From NCBI GenBank assembly GCA_965197905.1, contig CBDAOB010000003.1, forward strand, positions 64,001 through 128,000: a stretch of DNA of 64,000 nucleotides, read 5' to 3'. Under the pieces are notes generated by a model. The model searched no databases and was not told the origin of the DNA. It worked only from the letters and a program-made list of their open reading frames with translations. Made by a program: the position numbers and the translations under genes. The stretch comes from Candidatus Latescibacterota bacterium. Its GTDB lineage: Bacteria > Latescibacterota > UBA2968 > UBA8231. This document shows positions 6,773 through 29,018 of this stretch, piece by piece; positions within the stretch are counted from its first letter, which is position 1, and each line of letters opens with the position of its first letter.

Positions 6773-7926
6773 ATGCTGAGTTCGTCCCTCCGTAACCCGA
6801 TCACATTGTTTCGCGTACCCGGTTCGTCGACCCTTCGGATTCTGGGGATCGTGCTGAGTATTCGGCTTCTGGTGGCGATCTGGACCGCCCACACCTCGGG
6901 GACCGCCCCTTTTGACGACGAGTTTGTCAACAGTTGGACTCGATGGGATGCGGAACACTACGTGTTGATTGCGGAAGACGGGTACCGTTCTCCTGACGAG
7001 TCGCCGAGCCGCCTCGAATTCGTCAGCCGATTCCCACCGCTTTTCCCTCTTGCAACCGCCGCCACCCGCGCGATCACGCCTTTATCAACGGCCGCTTCGG
7101 GAATACTGCTCTCGATCACGTTCCTGTTTCTTGGCTCCGTACTGGTCTTTCGCATCAGCTGTACTCTTTTCAAGTCGAGGGAAACAAGCTACTGGAGCGT
7201 ACTGTTTCTCAACCTTTTCCCCACCTCCTACTTTGCCAGCGCTCCATATTCTGAGGCGATGTTCCTGTTTCTCATGGCTCTCTATTATTTCCTATTAGTG
7301 GAAAGAAGACAATTCTTGGGTCCTGCCATTGTGTTCACCGCGATGATTCTAACCCGCTCAGTAGGACCTGTCCTTTATCCTGTTCACATATATTTGTTTT
7401 GGCGCGAAAGTACCAAAGGTCCGAAGGAATGGCTTGGGCTGCTCCTACCCGGAATGACGTTCTTTATGCATCTTGCCGTCGTGCATCTCGTACTCGGTAT
7501 GCCGGGTTATCTGGAATCGACCGAACGATTCAGCATACGTGTGTTCTCCAGGCTTCCTTTCAGCGAGAAACAATAGATGCGATTGATTACTTCATCGACC
7601 ATCCTGGTCACATTCAGAACGCCGATTTCATGTACGGTGTTGGCTACAACGCTCTTTTCATGATGTTGGGCGACAGGCTCTGGTGATCTACGGCCTGCGG
7701 AAACTCGACCGCCTTGTTTAATATTTTCTCGGTGACGCACCTTCTATTTCTCTCTACGATCGGTGTGATGATCAGTGGTCCAAGATTTTTCTTCGTTCAT
7801 CTTCCGGTCTTTTTTATCCTTGCTCGGATCCCATCCCGGTTGGCGAAGGTCGGCATCGCCCTATGCTCGTTGGTGGCGCTACTAGTGTTCTCTGGTCGAT
7901 TTGTGACTGGGCTGTGGACATTCTGA
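6773..7926 (+). pseudogene. GT-C / PIG-V-like mannosyltransferase membrane protein, disrupted
   Basis: RWDAEHYVLIAEDGY, FPPLFP, APYSEAMF motifs; frameshift near 7566 and further breaks near 7670-7715; final fragment ends SGPRFFF...GLWTF*. Confidence 0.7.
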
Positions 7927-8097
7927 TAGCGGGATCGCGGAGCATCGGTCAGCGTCTCTCCTGCCCGCCGATCCGTCCACAGTTGAGATTTGCGGTTAGC
8001 TTCACTTGATTAGGGGCGCTCCGCCCCCCTTCTTTGAGTGGCCACGCCGTGGTCAACGCGGATCAACAGCAATGCAACCGATGGAGGCAGCGCTTCG

Positions 8098-9354
8098 ATG
8101 GCACACGACATAGCACAGCTGAATGGTGTGAAATACCGGATTCCGGAATCCCCGGTTGCCGTCGTGTGTGTTGACGGCGGCGACCCGGAATATTTCACGG
8201 CTGCGAAGAAAGCAGATGTCATCCCCAACATCGCTCTTTTCATGGAAGAAGGGTTCAGCAGCATCGCTCACTGCGCCATTCCGAGCTTCACATGCCCCAA
8301 CAATATTTCCATCGCGACGGGCGGACCTCCCGAGGTCCATGGGATTTCGGGTAATTTCTATCTGGATCGGCAGACCGGTGAGGCGGTGGTTATGACCGGG
8401 CCCGAGCTGATGCGGTCGCGTACCGTATTCGATGTAGTTTCGAAAGCCGGCGTGAAAACCGTCGTCATCACTGCAAAGGATAAACTGCGTCAGCAGCTCG
8501 GAAAGGACCTGGATGTGAGCGCCGGCAATGCCTGCTTTTCGTCCCAACACGCAGACCGTTGCACGATGGATGAAAACGGCATCGAGCGGGCACTCGACTT
8601 CGTGGGCCAGCCGCTACCTGACATGTACTCGGAGGAATTGTCGCTGTTTGTGCTCGATGCGGGTATCAAGTTTCTCGAGCAAGATGCCCGTCCGGGTCTG
8701 CTGTATTTGTCTCTGACTGATTATGTGCAGCACAAGTATGCTCCGGATCACCCAAAAGCGATCGACTTCTATAAATCGCTGGATGATCGCTTCGCACGCC
8801 TGGTGCAGCTTGGCGCCATCATCGGCTTCGTCGCCGATCACGGGATGAAAGACAAGTGCGCCGCCGACGGCACCTACAACATCGTCTATCTCCAGGATCT
8901 TCTGGACGAGCGTTTTGGAGCGGGCAATACCAAGGTCATCTGCCCGATTACCGATGCATTTGTTGGCCATCACGGATCACTCGGCGGTTTCGTTCGCGTC
9001 CATTGTTTCGATGGCGCTCCTGTGCAGGATGTGGTCGACTTCATTCGACCAATCGAGGGCATCGATGAAGTGCTGGAGCGCGGGGCGGCGGCGACCCGGT
9101 TCGAGCTTCCGTTCGATCTCGAGGCCGATGTCGTCGTGATTTCCAGTGAGAGTTACTGTGTCGGCATGGGACGCGACGATCACGATCTCGCCGATCTGAA
9201 CGGGGAGCGCCTGCGGTCACACGGCGGCATTTCCGAGCGTGACGTGCCTTTCGTGATCAGTCGGCCTCTCAACGCGGAATACCTTGCCCGAGCGCAGTCG
9301 GAGCAGCTGAAAAACTACCACATTTTCGACTTTGCGATAAACGGCACGGCTTGA
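8098..9354 (+). CDS. phnA: Phosphonoacetate hydrolase
   Basis: VVCVDG, PSFTCPNNISI (Thr nucleophile), YLSLTDYVQHK, ADHGM, LRSHGG; GGAGG RBS. Confidence 0.9.
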   Translation: MAHDIAQLNGVKYRIPESPVAVVCVDGGDPEYFTAAKKADVIPNIALFMEEGFSSIAHCAIPSFTCPNNISIATGGPPEVHGISGNFYLDRQTGEAVVMTGPELMRSRTVFDVVSKAGVKTVVITAKDKLRQQLGKDLDVSAGNACFSSQHADRCTMDENGIERALDFVGQPLPDMYSEELSLFVLDAGIKFLEQDARPGLLYLSLTDYVQHKYAPDHPKAIDFYKSLDDRFARLVQLGAIIGFVADHGMKDKCAADGTYNIVYLQDLLDERFGAGNTKVICPITDAFVGHHGSLGGFVRVHCFDGAPVQDVVDFIRPIEGIDEVLERGAAATRFELPFDLEADVVVISSESYCVGMGRDDHDLADLNGERLRSHGGISERDVPFVISRPLNAEYLARAQSEQLKNYHIFDFAINGTA

Positions 9355-9373
9355 TCAGCAAGGAGTCGGACTC

Positions 9374-10471
9374 ATGTCACAACGCACCGCGCGTGCAGCC
9401 GTTTACGATGCCCCGAACACGCCATTCGCGATCAGGAACTATCCTCTGAGAGACGTGCATCCTGATGAGGTTTTGGTCCGGGTCGTGATGTCGACGATTT
9501 GCCGGTCCGACATCCATTCGTACCACGGCCATCGGCCGAACCCGTGCCCCGGGATTCTCGGGCACGAGATCATCGGGGTCATCGACCAGCTCGGGGCGGA
9601 CATCGAACGCGACATGCGGGGCGATCCGCTCGCCGTCGGAGACCGGATCACCTGGACGGAATATTTCCATCATGGCGAGTCCTACTATCGCGATGTCCAT
9701 GACATGCCGCAGAAATCGCATGGGGTCAGAAAATATGGGCACGACCTGGTGGAAGAGGATCCACATTTTCTCGGCGGGTTTGCGGAGTATTGTTACGTCG
9801 TGCCGGGAACCGGCATCTTGAAACTCCCTGAAGAACTGAGCGACGAAGAGGCGACACCGATCAATTGCGGTGTCGCGACCATGGTTTGCGTCACCGAGGC
9901 AACGCAGATTCAGATGGGAGATGTCGTCGCGATCCAGGGACTCGGACTCTTGGGGCTCTACGGATGCGCGATGGCCAAGTCCCGTGGGGCACGTCTGGTG
10001 ATCGGGCTCGATGCGGTCGCGGATCGCCTCGCGGCGGCCAAAAAATTCGGTGCAGACGTCGTCATCGACATATCGGGCCGCGAAGAGGATGACATCGTTG
10101 CTCAGGTGCGCGAGTTGGCGCCGCCCGATGGCGTCGATGCCGTGATCGAGGTTTGTGGTGCTCCAGCCGCAGTCCCGGCAGGAATGAAGATGTTGCGCAT
10201 CGGCGGGCGTTACACGCTTGCCGGTCTGGTCAACCCCGATGCCCACGTCACGGTCGATGCCAATGTGTTTGTGAAGAAGTGGATCACGCTGCGGGGCATC
10301 CACAACTACCACCCGCGGCACCTGATCCAGGCGCTGGACTTCGTCGTGGCCAACCGGGAGCGATTCCCGTTCAAGGACATCGTCGATTCAAAATTCAAGC
10401 TCGATGATCTCGACGAGGCCTTCAAGCGGGCGTCCGCACGCTCGGTGCTGCGCGCCGCGATAGTACCGTAA
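9374..10471 (+). CDS. Zinc-binding MDR alcohol dehydrogenase (resembles the phosphonate-catabolism-associated clade)
   Basis: ICRSDIH, GHE, QGLGLLG, RGIHNYHPRHL; AAGGAG RBS. Confidence 0.85.
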   Translation: MSQRTARAAVYDAPNTPFAIRNYPLRDVHPDEVLVRVVMSTICRSDIHSYHGHRPNPCPGILGHEIIGVIDQLGADIERDMRGDPLAVGDRITWTEYFHHGESYYRDVHDMPQKSHGVRKYGHDLVEEDPHFLGGFAEYCYVVPGTGILKLPEELSDEEATPINCGVATMVCVTEATQIQMGDVVAIQGLGLLGLYGCAMAKSRGARLVIGLDAVADRLAAAKKFGADVVIDISGREEDDIVAQVRELAPPDGVDAVIEVCGAPAAVPAGMKMLRIGGRYTLAGLVNPDAHVTVDANVFVKKWITLRGIHNYHPRHLIQALDFVVANRERFPFKDIVDSKFKLDDLDEAFKRASARSVLRAAIVP

Positions 10472-10485
10472 GAGGATCGCTATTC

Positions 10486-11943
10486 ATGCCAGCAGAAACG
10501 CCTGATCTCGACTTCAAGCCAAAGGGACTGTTCATCGGTGGAGAATGGATAAAGGCCGGCTCCGGCCAGACCATTACTACGATCAACCCCTCAAACGGTG
10601 ACGTGCTCGGCGAAGTGCCGCTTGCCAATGAGGTCGATGTTGACAAGGCTGTCACAAGCGCCAAGGAGGCGTTTCCGGCATGGTCGGCTTTGCCCGTCGC
10701 GAAACGTCCCGAATATCTCCTGCGTCTTGCTCAAGCGATCGACGAAAATGCCGAACTTCTGGCGCTGATGGATGCCGTGGACAGTGGCAACGCGGTCTCC
10801 GGGATGCGCGCCGACATGAAATGGACGGCCGACACTTTCCGATACTTCGCCGGCCTGGTCACCGAGATGAAGGGCGAGACCCTGTCACGCGAGCCCGGCC
10901 ATCTCAACCTGACCTTGCGCCAACCCTACGGCGTGGTTGCCAAGATCAATCCCTTCAATCACCCCTTCCGTTTCTGCGCCGAAAAGGCGGCGTCGGCGCT
11001 GGCCGCCGGAAATACCGTTGTCATCAAAGGACCGGAACAAGCCCCGCTCTCCAGTCTGAAGCTAGGCGAGCTCTGCCAAGAGATTTTCCCGCCTGGCGTC
11101 GTCAATATCGTCACGGGGGACGGTCTGACAGGTTCGGCAATGGTGCGACACAAGGACGTACCTCGCATCGGGTTTGTGGGTTCAGTCGAGACGGGGCGAA
11201 TTATCGCTCGCGAAGCGGCCGAGGGACTCAAGGAGGTCACGCTGGAGCTGGGTGGAAAGAACCCTATCATCATTTTTCCTGACGCCGACCCAAACGAGGC
11301 GGCCGCCACGGTCGTAAAGGCGATGAACATGAATCGTCAGGGACAGTCGTGCTCGTCGACATCACGGGTGCTCGTGCATGAATCGCTGCACGACAAGGTG
11401 AGGGCCGAGCTCGTCAAAGTGGCGTCGGCGATTCCGATCGGTCTTCCATGGCTTGAAGGTGCTGAAATGGGACCGCTCGTTTCCCAGCAACAGTACAACA
11501 GGGTGCTGCGATATATCGAATATGGGCATGCGGATGGCGCCACGCTGCTGACTGGCGGCGGTTCGCCCGATGATCCGGACCTCAAGAGGGGATTCTTCGT
11601 AGCGCCTACGGTGTTCGACGGCGTGACACCGCAGATGCGCATCGCCAGCGAGGAGATCTTCGGTCCGGTCATGTCGATCATGGGCTGGACCGATTTCGAC
11701 GAGATGATCGAAGTCGCAAACGGTGTCATGTACGGGCTGACTGCGTCTATCGTAACCAACGACTTCGGTGCGGCGATGCGAGCGGCCGAACGGGTGGAAG
11801 CGGGCTACGTCTGGATCAATTCATCCGGCCGCTATCTGGGCGCTCCCTATGGGGGCTGGAAACAGAGTGGTATCGGTAAAGAAGAATCCTTCGAGGAGCT
11901 CCTGAGCTACACACGCCTGAAGAATGTGAACATGCGCTGGTAA
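10486..11943 (+). CDS. NAD(P)-dependent aldehyde dehydrogenase (PhdK-like motifs)
   Basis: PFNHP, LELGGKNP, GQSCSSTSR, EEIFGPV, PYGGWKQSG. Confidence 0.92.
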   Translation: MPAETPDLDFKPKGLFIGGEWIKAGSGQTITTINPSNGDVLGEVPLANEVDVDKAVTSAKEAFPAWSALPVAKRPEYLLRLAQAIDENAELLALMDAVDSGNAVSGMRADMKWTADTFRYFAGLVTEMKGETLSREPGHLNLTLRQPYGVVAKINPFNHPFRFCAEKAASALAAGNTVVIKGPEQAPLSSLKLGELCQEIFPPGVVNIVTGDGLTGSAMVRHKDVPRIGFVGSVETGRIIAREAAEGLKEVTLELGGKNPIIIFPDADPNEAAATVVKAMNMNRQGQSCSSTSRVLVHESLHDKVRAELVKVASAIPIGLPWLEGAEMGPLVSQQQYNRVLRYIEYGHADGATLLTGGGSPDDPDLKRGFFVAPTVFDGVTPQMRIASEEIFGPVMSIMGWTDFDEMIEVANGVMYGLTASIVTNDFGAAMRAAERVEAGYVWINSSGRYLGAPYGGWKQSGIGKEESFEELLSYTRLKNVNMRW

Positions 11944-11994
11944 CAAGCTGGCGCGGAGATGAACTCCAGCCAATCGAGAGGAGCCCGAAACAAG

Positions 11995-12966
11995 ATGGCC
12001 GAATCCATTCACTATCGCGGCAGGCTTGAAGCGTACTGCCTGGCCCAGCAGGAGTTCACGCTCGAGCTCGTCGACGCGACGTTGCGGGCTTACCCGCCGG
12101 CCCTGCCAGAACCGCCGCCGCGACGGCTGGCATTACAGCTGCTGGATCATGTGCTGCACGAGGAACCCGCCGCGAGCAAGCCGTGGCTCCAAGCCTTCCA
12201 CCACCGCCGCATAGCCGCCGCCGCCGACGACATCGAAGCGACGCTCGTCCGTTCGGGTGGTGCGGTGTGGAAGCTCTACGACCATGGCTTCGTCGTGCGC
12301 ACCCCGGAAGTGACGCTGGAGTTCGACCTCACGCGGGGTCACTCTGCCGGCGTCCCTGCTTTCGCCGTGGCGGATGAGGTGCTCGACCGGATCGCCGACG
12401 CCTGCGACGTGCTGTTCATCAGCCACCTCCACGAGGATCACGCCGACCCTCACGTCGCAGCCCGTTTCCTCGTCCAGAACAAGCCGGTGGTCGCGCCGCC
12501 ACAGGTGCTGGAAGAGGAACCGTTCCACGAGCGCATCACTCACCTTCCGCGCGAGCCCCACGTGCTGCACGAGCTGTCGGTGCACGGTGGAGAGGTGCTC
12601 CTGCGGGTCGCCGCCAATCCGGGTCACCAGGGCATCAAAACCGAGAACAACCACCATGTGGTGGTCGCGCCCTGTGGATTCACCGTGGTCCACACCGGCG
12701 ACCAGGGCTATACAGACGAACTCGACTGGTTGGACAGCGCCCACGAGCACTACCGGGTCGACCTGTTGCTGCCTAACTCCTGGGTGCCCGACTTGCTGGG
12801 GGTGGTGGCCGCATACGATCCGCGCTTCATCGTCCCAGGCCACGAGAACGAGCTGGGCCACGACGTCTCCCACCGCGAGCCCTACTGGCTTTCCTACGTG
12901 CGCATGACGACGAACGCCGAGAAGCTTCTGGTGATGACCTGGGGCGAACGCTTTGACGTGCCATAG
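11995..12966 (+). CDS. MBL-fold metallo-hydrolase (UlaG-like)
   Basis: SHLHEDH, HTGD, PGHENELGH; start could instead be 11959. Confidence 0.82.
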   Translation: MAESIHYRGRLEAYCLAQQEFTLELVDATLRAYPPALPEPPPRRLALQLLDHVLHEEPAASKPWLQAFHHRRIAAAADDIEATLVRSGGAVWKLYDHGFVVRTPEVTLEFDLTRGHSAGVPAFAVADEVLDRIADACDVLFISHLHEDHADPHVAARFLVQNKPVVAPPQVLEEEPFHERITHLPREPHVLHELSVHGGEVLLRVAANPGHQGIKTENNHHVVVAPCGFTVVHTGDQGYTDELDWLDSAHEHYRVDLLLPNSWVPDLLGVVAAYDPRFIVPGHENELGHDVSHREPYWLSYVRMTTNAEKLLVMTWGERFDVP

Positions 12967-12975
12967 AGGACAACC

Positions 12976-14271
12976 ATGACTACCGAGCTTGCTGCGCATA
13001 TCCTACAGACCCCTCTTTGCGACACCCACGAACATCTGCGCAAAGAGCACACCTGGATCGATGAGGGACCCGACATCCTCCAGGATCTCTTCGGCAACTA
13101 CGTTGCGGCCGACTTGAAAACGGCAGGTGCCAACACCGCGGCTATCGAGCGTCTGCTACACAAGCCAGAGGCACCGGTGGGCGACCGCTTTCGCGATATC
13201 CAGAGTGCGTGGCATGCCACCCAGTTTACCGGCTACGGCGAAGCGGTCCGGCTGATTGCAAGCAAGATATACGGACTGGAGGAACTGACAGCCGGTGGTC
13301 TGGACCAGGCGCAGACGCGATTGACCGACCTGCGCAGACCGGGAGGGCGTTACGATCTGCTCAAGAACGTGGCGAATCTGGACCACATCCAGACGGATGA
13401 CGGCTGCTGGCCTTGTCTGCCCGATCGCTCGGGCTTGGACTTTTTCTTCTACGATATCTCCTGGGCGGGATTCTGCAACGGCCACATCGACCCTGAGGCT
13501 ATCGAAGCGGAAACGTCGGTTGCCGTCAACGATCTGAATTCGCTCGACAAATCCATGGCCGCCATTTTTGCGAAGTACGCGTCGGTCGCCATCGCCGTCA
13601 AAGCCCAGCACGCCTACAATAGAACCCTCCTTTGGGAGGAGCGAACGCGAGAAGATGCATCTCAGGCACTAGACGCCGTCCTGAGCGAAGGCCCCGAAAA
13701 CGTACCCGAAGCAACACGTCTTTGCCTGGGTGACTGGTGCTGGGCAAGAGGAATCGAGCTGGCAGTCGAGCACGACCTCCCGTTCAAGATCCACACCGGA
13801 TATTACGCCGGCAACGATCGCATGCCGGTGGACCGGATCCGCGCCGGCAACATGTGTCCTCTGCTGGCGAAATATCTGGACGCCCGTTTTGTGCTCATGC
13901 ATATCGCCTACCCGTACAACAACGAGCTGATCGCCATCGCCAAACATTACCCCAACGTCTGGGTAGACCTATGCTGGGCGTGGTCCATCGATCCTTTCAG
14001 TTCCGCGGATTTTGTCCGGCGATTCATCCACACGGTTCCAGCGAACAAGCTTTTCGGTTTCGGCGGCGACACGGGATGGCCCACGAGTTCGGCCGCGTAT
14101 GCAATCCAGATGAGACACTGGTTCACGCGGGCGATGGAGAGTGAGGTTGCAGAAGGCTTATTGACCGAGCAACAGGCAAAGCGGGTTGCATCTCGAATCA
14201 TGCACGACAATCAGTACGACTGCTTCGATCTGGAGGGGACACGCCGCAACATCGCCGAAGCCGCAGCCTGA
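12976..14271 (+). CDS. Amidohydrolase family protein (Amidohydro_2)
   Basis: DTHEH, KIHTG, LMHIAYPY, VDLCW, FGGD. Confidence 0.87.
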   Translation: MTTELAAHILQTPLCDTHEHLRKEHTWIDEGPDILQDLFGNYVAADLKTAGANTAAIERLLHKPEAPVGDRFRDIQSAWHATQFTGYGEAVRLIASKIYGLEELTAGGLDQAQTRLTDLRRPGGRYDLLKNVANLDHIQTDDGCWPCLPDRSGLDFFFYDISWAGFCNGHIDPEAIEAETSVAVNDLNSLDKSMAAIFAKYASVAIAVKAQHAYNRTLLWEERTREDASQALDAVLSEGPENVPEATRLCLGDWCWARGIELAVEHDLPFKIHTGYYAGNDRMPVDRIRAGNMCPLLAKYLDARFVLMHIAYPYNNELIAIAKHYPNVWVDLCWAWSIDPFSSADFVRRFIHTVPANKLFGFGGDTGWPTSSAAYAIQMRHWFTRAMESEVAEGLLTEQQAKRVASRIMHDNQYDCFDLEGTRRNIAEAAA

Positions 14272-14298
14272 CCCGCGCCCAGGGAGCCCAACAGGTCT

Positions 14299-15429
14299 CT
14301 ACGGTCGCACGCGTGCCCAGCAGGCGTTTTTGATCGTTTCGTCGCCGGCGTAGAACACGGTGAAGAGATCCCCGTTGGGCAGGAGCGCAATGCGGGGATG
14401 TCCGAAACGCCACCGTTCCATGTCCTTCCAAAGCTCGGCCCCCGAACGCGATCCCTCGGCGCCCGATTCGGTTCCGCGGGAGCTGTCGTACACCCTCAAA
14501 TCGCGCGATCGATCCCAGGTCCGGCCAAAATCCGGGCTGAAAGAGAGGTTGATTCCTGGAGGATCCCGGCGATGGGGGTAGGCCGCCACCAGCCGATCGC
14601 CGCCGATGGCCAGGGGTTGGCAATGTTGACCAGGTAGGCCAGTGGGTTCGGGAGCGGACCAGTGACGCGCATCGGCGCTGCCCCACGATATATGAGCGTC
14701 GATGTCGTGACCTTTGAGAAAATCGTGCGTCCAGAACATCGCCACCAAGCCACCTGAAGAGGGATGTCTGTCGATTCGTTGATCCCAGTAGGCCACCTCG
14801 TGTTCGGGGTGTTGGGCAACTGTCACAAACTCGGACCAGGAGACTCCGCCGTCGCCGGAAATGCGCAGGCGGGCACCGGGTTGGCCCGGAGACGGATCGT
14901 CGTACTCCTTCCAGTGCTCGTACGGCTGGCAGAGGAAACCATCGGGAAGCTTGAAAACGGCGCAGGTACAGGGCGAAGCAGCTACGTGAGGAGTCGTCTC
15001 CATAACGCGAGGCTGGCTCCAGCTACGGCCGTCGTCGCCGGAGGTTGCGTGCAGGATCTGCATCGGAAGCAGCCCCTGAGTCCGGGGATTGATAAACGGC
15101 AGCTCCGGGCGCGAGCGATTGACCCAAAGGAATGAGGCTGTAAGCTCTCCGGGTTCCAGCTCAGTGAGGCTCATCGTTTTGATTTCGCCGGTTATGCCCG
15201 AAAACTCGGTCTGGCCATACCCGTCGTAACGGAGTTCCCACGACTCGCCCATATTCTCGCTGGCGAAGATACAGGCGTGACCGTCGGCGGAGTGCCTGGC
15301 AGTGCCCCAGCGCCCGGTAACCAAAACGGTTCCACGCCGAGTCACAAAAACATCCGTGAACGCACTCGAGCGCCGATATTGTGGACCGCTGGCTCCGTCG
15401 AACACCAGCCCAGAGGAGATCAGTTGCAC
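14299..15429 (-). CDS. Sialidase/BNR Asp-box beta-propeller protein
   Basis: Repeated Asp-boxes SENMGESW, SGDDGRSW, SGDGGVSW, SPDFGRTW. Confidence 0.82.
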   Translation of the reverse strand: MQLISSGLVFDGASGPQYRRSSAFTDVFVTRRGTVLVTGRWGTARHSADGHACIFASENMGESWELRYDGYGQTEFSGITGEIKTMSLTELEPGELTASFLWVNRSRPELPFINPRTQGLLPMQILHATSGDDGRSWSQPRVMETTPHVAASPCTCAVFKLPDGFLCQPYEHWKEYDDPSPGQPGARLRISGDGGVSWSEFVTVAQHPEHEVAYWDQRIDRHPSSGGLVAMFWTHDFLKGHDIDAHISWGSADARHWSAPEPTGLPGQHCQPLAIGGDRLVAAYPHRRDPPGINLSFSPDFGRTWDRSRDLRVYDSSRGTESGAEGSRSGAELWKDMERWRFGHPRIALLPNGDLFTVFYAGDETIKNACWARVRP

Positions 15430-15438
15430 GGGTTACAA

Positions 15439-16695
15439 CCCCTATTCCCCATATTGAACCTGAAAACCGCTTTTCAAAGGTGCCATAAGATGTTATAGGC
15501 AATATAATAACGATTGTTTCTGGCGATGAATATGGGTCATCCCGAGGGTGAAAGGATGAGAATGGGTTTTGATGGTGGAATCAAGCTTGAATTTCATGGT
15601 GCAAAAGTGACCTCTGACGGGGGTCTTTTAGCGTATCGTGAACTTGATGATGCGCTGGGATTATTCGATGCCGTTTCTACGGCTTTATCGGACCAACGTA
15701 CTGGCCGTAATATCCAACATGCGATGGCTACCTTATTACGCCAATCCATTTATAGCCGTCTTGCGGGGTATGAAGATGTCAATGACGCCGAGCGTCTCTC
15801 GGTTGATCCTGTCATGAGAGCGCTCACCGGGGAAAAGGGCGCCCCACAAACAGGCCGCCAGCGTCAACACGATGGGGCGTTTTGAAACTAAGATACTGAC
15901 TCCGCACGAGAATCTCGGAAACTTGTCAGATATTAATGGCAAGTGGGTTCAAAAAGCGATGGGTAAGACCCCTCATCAGCGAATCATTCTGGACCTGGAC
16001 AGTTCAGAGAGCCCGGTACATGGCGAGCAGGAGGGATCAGCTTACAACGGCCATTTCGGGTGTACCTGTTTCCATCCGCTGTTCTGCTTCAATCAGTTCG
16101 GGGATTGTGAAGGCGTCCTGCTGCGCTCTGGTAATGTTCACAGCGCTGATCGTTGGAAGGAAGTTCTGCAACCGATCGTCAAGAGATACGAGAACAAAAA
16201 GAATAGGAAATACTTTCGTGGCGATGCGGCCTTCGCCAAACCAGAAATCTATGAATACCTGGAGGGAAACGGCCTCTTGTATGCCATCCGGATGCCTGCC
16301 AACCAACTCCTCCACGAGAAAATACGACCCCTGCTGACTCGACCGGTGGGCCGACCACCCGAAAAGCCGATAATCTGCTGGTCCGAGTTCAGCTATCAGG
16401 CCGGCAGTTGGGATCGACCGCGGTGGCGATAGACCAGACGTTATTTGCCGAGATCTTGGCCCGAATCAAGCGTTTACGCAATTATTCTGTCTAGAACATC
16501 ACTTTCCAAAGTGAAGCAATGGATACCTGTCTCTAATCGGTGAATGTGAACATGGAGATCATGATAATTCGGAAAAACAAGGCCGTTCTTAATGCAGAAA
16601 TTTGTCCGTGGAGCAAAGTGGACGGCCATTCCTTATTATCAAACAGAGTCGAGTTCAATCTAAACCCCAACTGATTTTGATATGGGGAATACCAG
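15439..16695 (+). mobile_element. IS1380-family insertion sequence, defective (internal deletion and frameshift)
   Basis: Terminal inverted repeats CCCCTATTCCCCATAT (15439-15454) and ATATGGGGAATACCAG (16680-16695), 13/16 match; encloses the transposase remnant. Confidence 0.85.
15532..16494 (+). pseudogene. IS1380-family DDE transposase, frameshifted and internally deleted
   Basis: EFHGAKVTSDGGLL, GYEDVNDA, LDLDSSESPVHGEQEG, RGDAAFA; extra G near 15831; jumps from SWDRPR to the C-terminal VAIDQTLFAEILARIKRLR. Confidence 0.88.
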
Positions 16696-27161: not shown

Positions 27162-29018
27162 TCAACCGGTGGCCTCATCCTCTGTTTTCCTCGTCCTGTT
27201 CCGCATATCGAGATAACCTTCGAGCATGGTCAGAGCGATCGACTCGGCATAGGAATAGATGCGGCGCAGGTAGTCTACGAGGTCGAGATGAATCTCGCTG
27301 CTTTCTAGCGATTCCTGCCGTTCGGCGCTCAGTCGTTGGTAATGGGTTATGCGATAGGTTCGGTGCTGAATAACCAGTTCCGGTTTTGCGCGCACAACTT
27401 CCCGTGCACGATTTCCGTCGTTTTCTTCGAACGCTGTCATGGCCGTGTCGTAAGCGGACAGCACGTTCTGGTGAAGTGTTAGGAGCTCGTCCCTGCCCTC
27501 TTCCGAAAAACCGATATTGCCTTGGGCCTTCTTCTGCAACAGAGGGCTCAGGTCCTTCTTGATCAGATCGCCGATATGCTTCAGATCGGTCGAGACATCC
27601 ATTAGCTGAGTAGCGAACTCCGACTGTTGCTGGTTGAGATTTCTGCGGGAGATCTGAATGAGGTAGTCGTTTATCTGGGCGCTGATGTGAACGACCTCAG
27701 CTTCCCGTTCAGACACCCTGGCATGCAACGAGAGGTCGTTCTGTACGAAGCAGGTCATGATATTTTCGATCATTTCGCGCACCAATCGCCCCACGCGGAG
27801 GATTTCTCCCCGGGTCTGTTCGAGAGCGATCGAGGGCACCGTCAGGAGATCGGGATCCAGGTGAACAGCGGTCCACTCCAGTGGGGCGCCCGATTCCACA
27901 ATCCGTGGTGCGACTTGATCGGGAACCAGCTTTTCGACCAGACGTGCGAATTGTGCGCCGAACGGCAACAGCAGCAAGGTGTTGGCGATGTTGAATATGG
28001 TGTGGGCGTTGGCGATCTGACGGGGCGTCTCGGCTGCGAGTTTCTCAGTCCCGGAAAGCCCGGCAGTCTCTGGCGACACGTTCAAAACGAGGGCCGCTAG
28101 ATGGTCGATAAACCAGACCCATATCAGGACTCCCGCAACATTGAAGAGGACGTGGATAAGGCTGGCTCGCAGTGCCTCCCGCGGCTTGCCTATGGATGCG
28201 AGCATAGCGGTAACGCAGGTACCGATGTTGGCCCCGAAAATAAGAGCGATTCCCGCCTCCAGAGAAATCAGCCCTTGGCCAGCCATGGCAATCACCACGC
28301 CGGTGGTGGCCGAGGACGACTGAACGAGGCCGGTAAATGCCGCGGCCACTAGAATACCTAAGGCCGGGGTCTCCATGCGCACCATCAAATCCAGGAACGG
28401 ACCGTAGGTGCGCAGCGGTTTCATGGCACTGCTCATCAGACTCATACCGAAGAACACCAGGCCCAATCCCATAAGCATGGCCCCGTATTGGCGCACGGTG
28501 TCTTTGCGGGAGATGAAGAGCATGGCGAAACCGACGGCGATCATCAGCAGAGCCACCTTGGTCACTTTGAAGGCGATTATTTGCGCTGTCAGGGTCGTGC
28601 CGATATTGGCTCCGAATATGATTCCAACCGCCTGAGAGACCGAGAGGATGCCAGCCGTAATGAATCCGACAGTCAAGACCGTGGTGACCGAGGAAGATTG
28701 AATAATCGCGGTTACTATAGCACCGGTGATCGCCCCCATAAAGCGGTTGGTAGTGAGGCGGGCTAGGATATCCTTGAGCCGGTCTGCAGCCAGCGCCTTG
28801 AGGGCGTCTGACATCTGCTCCATGCCGAAGAGGAACAGGGCCAGTCCACCCAGAAGTCCCATACCCATGGTCCAAAGATCGAGATCGGTGGACCCACCCA
28901 ACGAGGAATTCGTGGAACCGCTCGCCGCAAAGACCTTGGCTACGAGCATCAGCACTGCCACCAACGATAAGGCTAGGGCCATTCTGGCCCCTCCGAAAAA
29001 TCTGGTCATAATCCTCAT
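27162..29018 (-). CDS. Na+/phosphate cotransporter (NptA/PNaS) with C-terminal PhoU-like domain
   Basis: Two QSSS motifs, GANIGT twice, IANAHTIFN. Confidence 0.92.
   Translation of the reverse strand: MRIMTRFFGGARMALALSLVAVLMLVAKVFAASGSTNSSLGGSTDLDLWTMGMGLLGGLALFLFGMEQMSDALKALAADRLKDILARLTTNRFMGAITGAIVTAIIQSSSVTTVLTVGFITAGILSVSQAVGIIFGANIGTTLTAQIIAFKVTKVALLMIAVGFAMLFISRKDTVRQYGAMLMGLGLVFFGMSLMSSAMKPLRTYGPFLDLMVRMETPALGILVAAAFTGLVQSSSATTGVVIAMAGQGLISLEAGIALIFGANIGTCVTAMLASIGKPREALRASLIHVLFNVAGVLIWVWFIDHLAALVLNVSPETAGLSGTEKLAAETPRQIANAHTIFNIANTLLLLPFGAQFARLVEKLVPDQVAPRIVESGAPLEWTAVHLDPDLLTVPSIALEQTRGEILRVGRLVREMIENIMTCFVQNDLSLHARVSEREAEVVHISAQINDYLIQISRRNLNQQQSEFATQLMDVSTDLKHIGDLIKKDLSPLLQKKAQGNIGFSEEGRDELLTLHQNVLSAYDTAMTAFEENDGNRAREVVRAKPELVIQHRTYRITHYQRLSAERQESLESSEIHLDLVDYLRRIYSYAESIALTMLEGYLDMRNRTRKTEDEATG

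Follow-up and report, generated by a model that had tools for sequence, protein, structure and literature searches.

The closest described counterpart of the locus analyzed here is the oxidative pathway built on PbfG, a pf00107 zinc-dependent alcohol dehydrogenase (ADH) that converts 2-hydroxyethylphosphonate (HEP) to phosphonoacetaldehyde (PAA) with a kcat/KM of 88,500 M-1 s-1 (Piazza et al. 2026, PMC13576164; this source and the other PMC papers are cited from excerpts). HEP is favored at the PbfG equilibrium unless PAA is removed, that is, the first step is uphill, and pbfG often clusters with phnY-phnA in the absence of phnW. The methods of that study define clusters via PhnX or PhnY/PhnA, the available part of its Table S2 has no Pseudomonadota among the members, and the phrase “aldehyde dehydrogenase” is absent from the main text as excerpted. 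We analyzed a 64,000-nucleotide stretch of a Candidatus Latescibacterota contig (CBDAOB010000003.1, positions 64,001 to 128,000; hereafter the window), in which phnA is followed by a Zn-ADH gene and an aldehyde dehydrogenase (ALDH) gene.

Like the PbfG-PhnY-PhnA clusters (PMC13576164), this trio combines phnA with a pf00107 Zn-ADH and an ALDH, lacks phnW and pbfD and has the same predicted chemistry, and its ADH has the modeled catalytic and HEP-binding residues. It differs from them in that its ALDH is not PhnY, that its ADH forms a separate subclade, mostly from Alphaproteobacteria and not in Table S2 as excerpted, and that its genes are ordered phnA-ADH-ALDH, often together with phnCDE and a LysR gene. 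With the PhnW-PhnY-PhnA route for 2-aminoethylphosphonate the trio shares the last two steps, but it is predicted to enter by alcohol oxidation and not by transamination, and the genome has no PhnW match.

The original prediction, in which an ADH opens a route from HEP through PAA and phosphonoacetate to acetate and inorganic phosphate (Pi), is likely right, as judged by synteny, by the conservation of the PbfG residues and by the work on PbfG itself. Because this oxidative pathway has already been published (PMC13576164), it is not new; the new element would be the ALDH that seems to stand in the place of PhnY. A PAA dehydrogenase other than PhnY does not appear for phosphonate catabolism in the excerpts of PMC8942020, PMC10574752, PMC5845264, PMC3266647 and PMC12366243, and none was found in the literature searched, the scope of which excluded most subscription journals. 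We consider it probable that the trio ALDH represents a second, independently evolved family of PAA dehydrogenases with a three-arginine phosphonate pocket, and that, together with a PbfG subfamily free of structural zinc, it makes up an HEP-degrading operon which occurs across Alphaproteobacteria and several other phyla and is missed by the PhnY and TIGR03366 profiles at their cut-offs.

Gene order and spread of the trio

We surveyed synteny around the ADH gene in GTDB, using the best 80 of 294 loci; the sample includes related genomes, near-duplicate loci and some loci ending at a contig edge. The phnA gene lies upstream of the ADH gene in 65 of these loci and the trio ALDH directly downstream in 64; both partners are present in 61, which shows that the order phnA-ADH-ALDH is not due to chance and bears out the conservation of the trio that the original prediction presupposed. 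In three loci (L052, L069 and L078) the slot of the trio ALDH is taken by a true PhnY (741-757 bits), and the two enzymes occur together in none of the 80. The swap of the slot and the lack of overlap in the sample speak for the trio ALDH as the likely PAA oxidizer. A frameshifted trio ALDH in L072 fell below the detection threshold used. Genes of phnC/D/E-type ABC transporters cluster with the ADH in 44-47 loci and a TIGR03339-like phosphonate LysR gene in 26. The loci span Alpha-, Gamma- and Betaproteobacteria, Spirochaetia, Methylomirabilota and genomes labeled Latescibacterota; among these best 80 of 294, the closest one with a name, at 98% identity in the ADH, carries the label Candidatus Latescibacterota. 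At one locus (L014:4724-5965) a TnpB gene is inserted between phnA and the ADH gene.

Neither phnA nor an ALDH partner accompanies the ADH in 11 of the 80 loci. Nine of them, from eight genomes, were checked: seven of these genomes carry phnA elsewhere, with PhnY beside it in six.

Searches that started from the other two genes gave a similar picture. The ALDH search led to 60 metagenome loci, of which 17 have at least 80% identity; the ADH gene is present in all nine with upstream DNA and phnA in all five trio-ALDH loci long enough to show it, and neither gene adjoins the ALDH in any of the 43 loci at 43% identity or below. A scan of 301 genomes from one order (that of genome G041), with five candidates scored per genome, found the trio ALDH in three (67-83% identity) and 22 more matches at 45-49%, none of which has the ADH or phnA gene within 1.5 kb. 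Around 60 phnA loci, the 30 top-scoring ones of each of two groups and thus biased to canonical phnA, PhnY lies within 1.5 kb in 29, the ADH and after it the beginning of a trio-ALDH-like gene in three, both in none and neither in 28. Of 24 other genomes in the family to which the window belongs, four carry the ADH (above 90% identity) with phnA and the trio ALDH; in at least four others, phnA and a PhnY-like gene accompany another ADH (33-37%). Five genomes with the trio ALDH have no PhnY-level match, the best score being 379 bits in the window's genome and at most 279 in the others. Horizontal spread of the trio is likely. On PLSDB plasmids we found neither the trio ALDH (best match 52.5%, adjoining pcaDHG genes) nor an ADH of this clade (best match 36%).

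Lineages and predicted active sites of the three enzymes

The top family match of the trio ADH, ahead by 157 bits, is TIGR03366 (HpnZ_proposed, phosphonate-associated ADH), and PF00107 is matched as well. The protein is 37% identical to WP_284687237 (Chondrinema), a PbfG of Table S2 that was found by plasmid search. The modeled PbfG site comprises the zinc ligands C45, H66 and C166 and the HEP contacts S47, R56, H124, N298 and R288 (PMC13576164). With PbfG numbering mapped by spacing via the homologues in L199 and L201, and not by alignment to the assayed C. protaetiae protein, the window ADH residues C43, S45, R54, H64, H123, C165, K301 and N311 correspond to PbfG C45, S47, R56, H66, H124, C166, R288 and N298; in L201, an actinobacterial homologue, seven of the modeled residues lie at offsets of 4-5. 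The PbfG residue set is kept in 79-80 of the 80 ADH loci; none of R54, H123 and N311 occurs in any of the seven control Zn-ADHs, which are 33-37% identical and lack phnA and phnY in their vicinity. A quick tree with 33 rows, seven of them outgroup and one from Table S2, joins the ADH clade (100) to PbfG-like proteins with an SH-aLRT of 98, apart from the controls. As expected of PbfG, it is a pf00107 Zn-ADH clustered with genes for PAA degradation (phnA in 65 and true PhnY in 3 of the 80 loci). We thus assign the ADH to a PbfG-type subfamily, which would oxidize HEP.

PbfG-type ADH genes were also seen in other surroundings. Two unrelated loci (L020:2544-8744 and L164:3413-6651) have a SauS-like acylating aldehyde dehydrogenase and a HAD hydrolase in the vicinity of such a gene, and L020 has an AEP-type ABC binding protein as well. 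On a Streptomyces plasmid (L201:3971-9038) the genes after an ADH with the PbfG signature encode a PhoD-like phosphatase and a phosphonate ABC transporter, and the stretch shown contains neither phnX nor phnA.

The trio ALDH stays below the PhnY cut-off (231.8 against 635.65 bits with TIGR03250, which ranks 25th of 41 families) and shares 28% identity with PhnY. A quick tree with 51 rows places its clade (100) among relatives of 45-49% identity (97, 100), far from the PhnY clade (100). By these comparisons it is a lineage different from PhnY and not its orthologue. With PhnY (TIGR03250; S. meliloti, PDB 4i3t) it shares the superfamily, the operon slot, the catalytic residues (N158, K181, E254 and C289, all intact), His-159 and an arginine at position 447/449; R449 aligns with Arg in 8 of 8 PhnY rows (R447 in L069 numbering). 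A glutamate at position 184 suggests a preference for NAD. The relatives at 45-49%, which we take to be a PhdK-like (2-carboxybenzaldehyde dehydrogenase-like) group, have the NHP motif in common with the trio ALDH, one member of which is labeled “2-formylbenzoate dehy...” by one source.

What sets the trio ALDH apart from these relatives is its basic residues. At least 95% of 69 trio-ALDH rows have a basic residue at positions 162, 284, 449 and 484, where such residues are rare among 22 near relatives and 31 generic rows, the groups being defined by identity thresholds with near-duplicates included. R162 is present in 69/69 rows, R284 in 68/69 and R449 in 69/69, whereas the 22 nearest relatives, which also lack adjacent phosphonate genes, have no Arg at any of the three positions and all have His at 449. 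R284 stands five residues before the catalytic cysteine, and R162 and R449 occupy positions that in human ALDH2 line the substrate channel. For PhnY itself, work by Agarwal from 2014 reportedly places R108, H159, R290 and R447 in phosphonate binding. Two of these four, H159 and R449, are kept in the trio ALDH, which has W113 and S288 at the others, and has R162 and R284 in place of R108 and R290. Apparently the trio ALDH derives from a general aldehyde dehydrogenase lineage and acquired a predicted anion-binding pocket (H159, R162, R284 and R449) that is partly convergent with that of PhnY; it looks like a convergent replacement for PhnY.

The first enzyme of the trio is a PhnA, with 532.6 bits against the TIGR02335 cut-off of 407.55 and a full-length alignment to S. 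meliloti PhnA (3szy, E 6e-113). In this alignment T65, D26, K127, K129, D208, H212, D247, H248 and H375 are all present, which we take to be the nucleophilic threonine, the metal ligands and the lysine pair; T65 is the position changed to Ala in 3t02. This threonine is followed by Cys instead of Asn (PSFTCPNN for PSFTNPNN) in the trio PhnA, as it is in 51 of 78 rows. In an unrooted PhnA tree the PhnY-bearing trios L069 and L078, both with full phnA, nest within the trio-ALDH-partnered lineage (SH-aLRT 100), and this nesting suggests that the third gene was exchanged in place between the trio ALDH and PhnY, in either direction.

Locus layout and genomic background

Features of the phnA-ADH-ALDH locus (window positions)
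Feature	Position	Strand	Basis
Terminator-like GC hairpin with T-rich tail, 5' of phnA	8013..8027	+	consensus scan only
phnA (phosphonoacetate hydrolase, 418 aa)	8098..9354	+	ORF; TIGR02335 match
PbfG-type Zn-dependent ADH, predicted HEP dehydrogenase, 365 aa	9374..10471	+	TIGR03366 best match
Trio ALDH: aldehyde dehydrogenase of non-PhnY lineage, predicted PAA dehydrogenase, 485 aa	10486..11943	+	PF00171

The three tightly spaced, co-oriented genes described in the original prediction were confirmed as open reading frames (ORFs), with gaps of 19 nt between phnA and the ADH gene and 14 nt between the ADH and ALDH genes and with a purine-rich, ribosome-binding-like run before each; its statement that phnW and phnX are absent from the window also held, as the PhnW and PhnX profile searches matched nothing there. 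For phnA an in-frame GTG at 8038 precedes the ATG at 8098, and the latter is favored because of a GGAGG at 8083-8087. The hairpin upstream of phnA is possibly the 5' boundary of the unit; it comes from a consensus scan that found 11 terminator-like sites where 5.3 were expected; no sigma-70-like promoter was found in 7500-14600. Two co-oriented downstream ORFs (11959-12966 and 12976-14271) were left out of the unit, the first occurring in none of the fetched relative loci and the second in L001 only. The first has no Pfam or NCBIfam match; by eye it is metallo-beta-lactamase-like, with an HLHEDH motif, and it has a 74% paralogue on contig C4. Further downstream the window holds a transposase-like frame in two overlapping pieces (15514-16432, by eye) and, 15 kb from the trio, a Na/Pi cotransporter-like gene (27210-28607) with 24.5% identity to the gene after PhnY in L069.

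The genome searched is 91% complete, and profile searches in it gave no match over cut-off for PhnW, PhnX, PhnY, PhnJ or PepM. Several candidates for parts of the pathway elsewhere in the genome were rejected. The best TIGR03250 match (379 bits, contig C5) is a better fit to lactaldehyde dehydrogenase (522) and lacks phosphonate genes beside it, and a PhpC-like Fe-ADH, considered as another entry to PAA, reaches 186 where the cut-off is 424. The gene of a TIGR03364-type FAD oxidoreductase, considered as an amine-oxidation entry, is split by an IS1595 transposase into pieces of 234.7 and 78.3 bits (L214:12182-15375; G000:C3:1034182-1037374) and is possibly a lost entry to PAA of this kind. The only PhnD-like (TIGR01098) match considered as an importer is a selenium-type ABC protein beside senAB; this substrate-binding gene, with senA and senB, belongs to a selenoneine cluster (L215:7244-11331, G000:C2).

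Proposed route and rival explanations

We consider it likely that the trio is a catabolic HEP operon whose ADH, trio ALDH (in the place of PhnY) and PhnA act in turn. The ADH would convert HEP and NAD+ to PAA, the ALDH would irreversibly convert PAA, NAD+ and water to phosphonoacetate, and PhnA would hydrolyze the C-P bond of phosphonoacetate to release acetate and Pi. We infer that the irreversible second step would pull the uphill oxidation of HEP. Overall the route would give 2 NADH, acetate and Pi and would require neither O2 nor C-P lyase.

Several observations weigh against this assignment. The synteny counts, given the related genomes and near-duplicate loci behind them, are not independent; 2 of the 11 partnerless loci lie outside the check described above, and one of the eight genomes checked, G348 (2.3 Mb), has no phnA match at all. 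A phosphonate importer was not found in the window's genome. The profile search proposed in the original prediction did return the phosphonate-associated family TIGR03366 as the top match of the ADH, but at 287.5 bits this match misses the cut-off of 328.1; five members of the ADH clade score 285-306. The ADH has Lys-301 where PbfG has R288 (K or R in 79/80 loci), and it lacks the four-Cys structural zinc site, with H100, S103, R106 and H116 there. Structural zinc is likewise absent from Bacteroidota PbfG (PMC13576164, Fig. S10 legend, as excerpted), the one PbfG group for which its loss is described there, and the four-Cys site is therefore not strictly defining for PbfG. In the ALDH, R108 of PhnY is replaced (W in 67/69 rows), as is R290 (S in 69/69), and H159 is common to all 22 near relatives and hence not diagnostic. 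Finally, a cluster in genome G343 holds a trio-ALDH gene and a true PhnY gene in divergent orientation; phnA, the gene of a PhpC-like Fe-ADH, a VOC-family gene and genes for two MFS transporters belong to it as well. This cluster means that the exclusivity of the trio ALDH and PhnY is not absolute and that a second role of the ALDH is possible; at the same time it ties the ALDH to phosphonate genes even without a PbfG-type ADH. The same stretches (L204:13545-16501 and L195:734-12494) also carry a LysR gene, a ketopantoate-reductase-like gene and an alpha/beta hydrolase, the VOC-family gene looks FosX-like to us, and the cluster is perhaps a multi-phosphonate island.

Could the ALDH act on a different anionic aldehyde, with the ADH and PhnA working on HEP and phosphonoacetate and another cellular ALDH oxidizing PAA? 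Such a division of labor would fit the retention of both the trio ALDH and PhnY in G343, the two missing PhnY arginines and the six other TIGR03250-matching ALDH-like regions of the genome, the best of which is lactaldehyde-dehydrogenase-like. We regard it as unlikely, as PhnY and the trio ALDH are swapped in place and distributed in a complementary pattern across genomes, and PAA oxidation is needed between the ADH and PhnA, where the trio ALDH is the sole adjacent candidate. Only slightly less probable is that all three enzymes are co-adapted to another hydroxyalkylphosphonate, either hydroxymethylphosphonate via phosphonoformate, in the manner of PhpE/PhpJ, or a substituted C2/C3 compound. 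Phosphonoformate inhibits PhnA rather than serving as its substrate, which counts against the hydroxymethylphosphonate version. All three proteins are indeed divergent (PSFTCPNN in PhnA, a separate ADH subclade, a different ALDH pocket), and PhpJ is an ALDH proposed for phosphonoformaldehyde (PMC8942020, as excerpted), PhpE/PhpJ being set beside the trio by description. Yet L069 and L078 combine the ADH and the Cys-variant PhnA with a true PhnY, which ties these two enzymes to PAA and phosphonoacetate, and the ADH keeps the PbfG residue set.

It is very improbable that the genes are biosynthetic, reducing PAA to HEP, or that they are unrelated dehydrogenases loosely associated with phnA. In vitro PbfG is the more efficient as a PAA reductase, and two Actinoplanes copies of pbfG lie within biosynthetic clusters (PMC13576164). 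The genome, however, has no PepM over cut-off, the neighbors of the ADH are a hydrolase and, in related loci, importers, and a loose association is at odds with a gene order kept across several phyla.

We favor the operon in which the trio ALDH takes over the step of PhnY. The effect would be modest in size: among the 60 phnA loci sampled, three have the trio and 29 have PhnY. If the trio ALDH does the job of PhnY, surveys based on phnY or on the TIGR03366 cut-off overlook this version of the operon, and the enzyme would be a clean example of substrate recognition that arose convergently within the ALDH superfamily.

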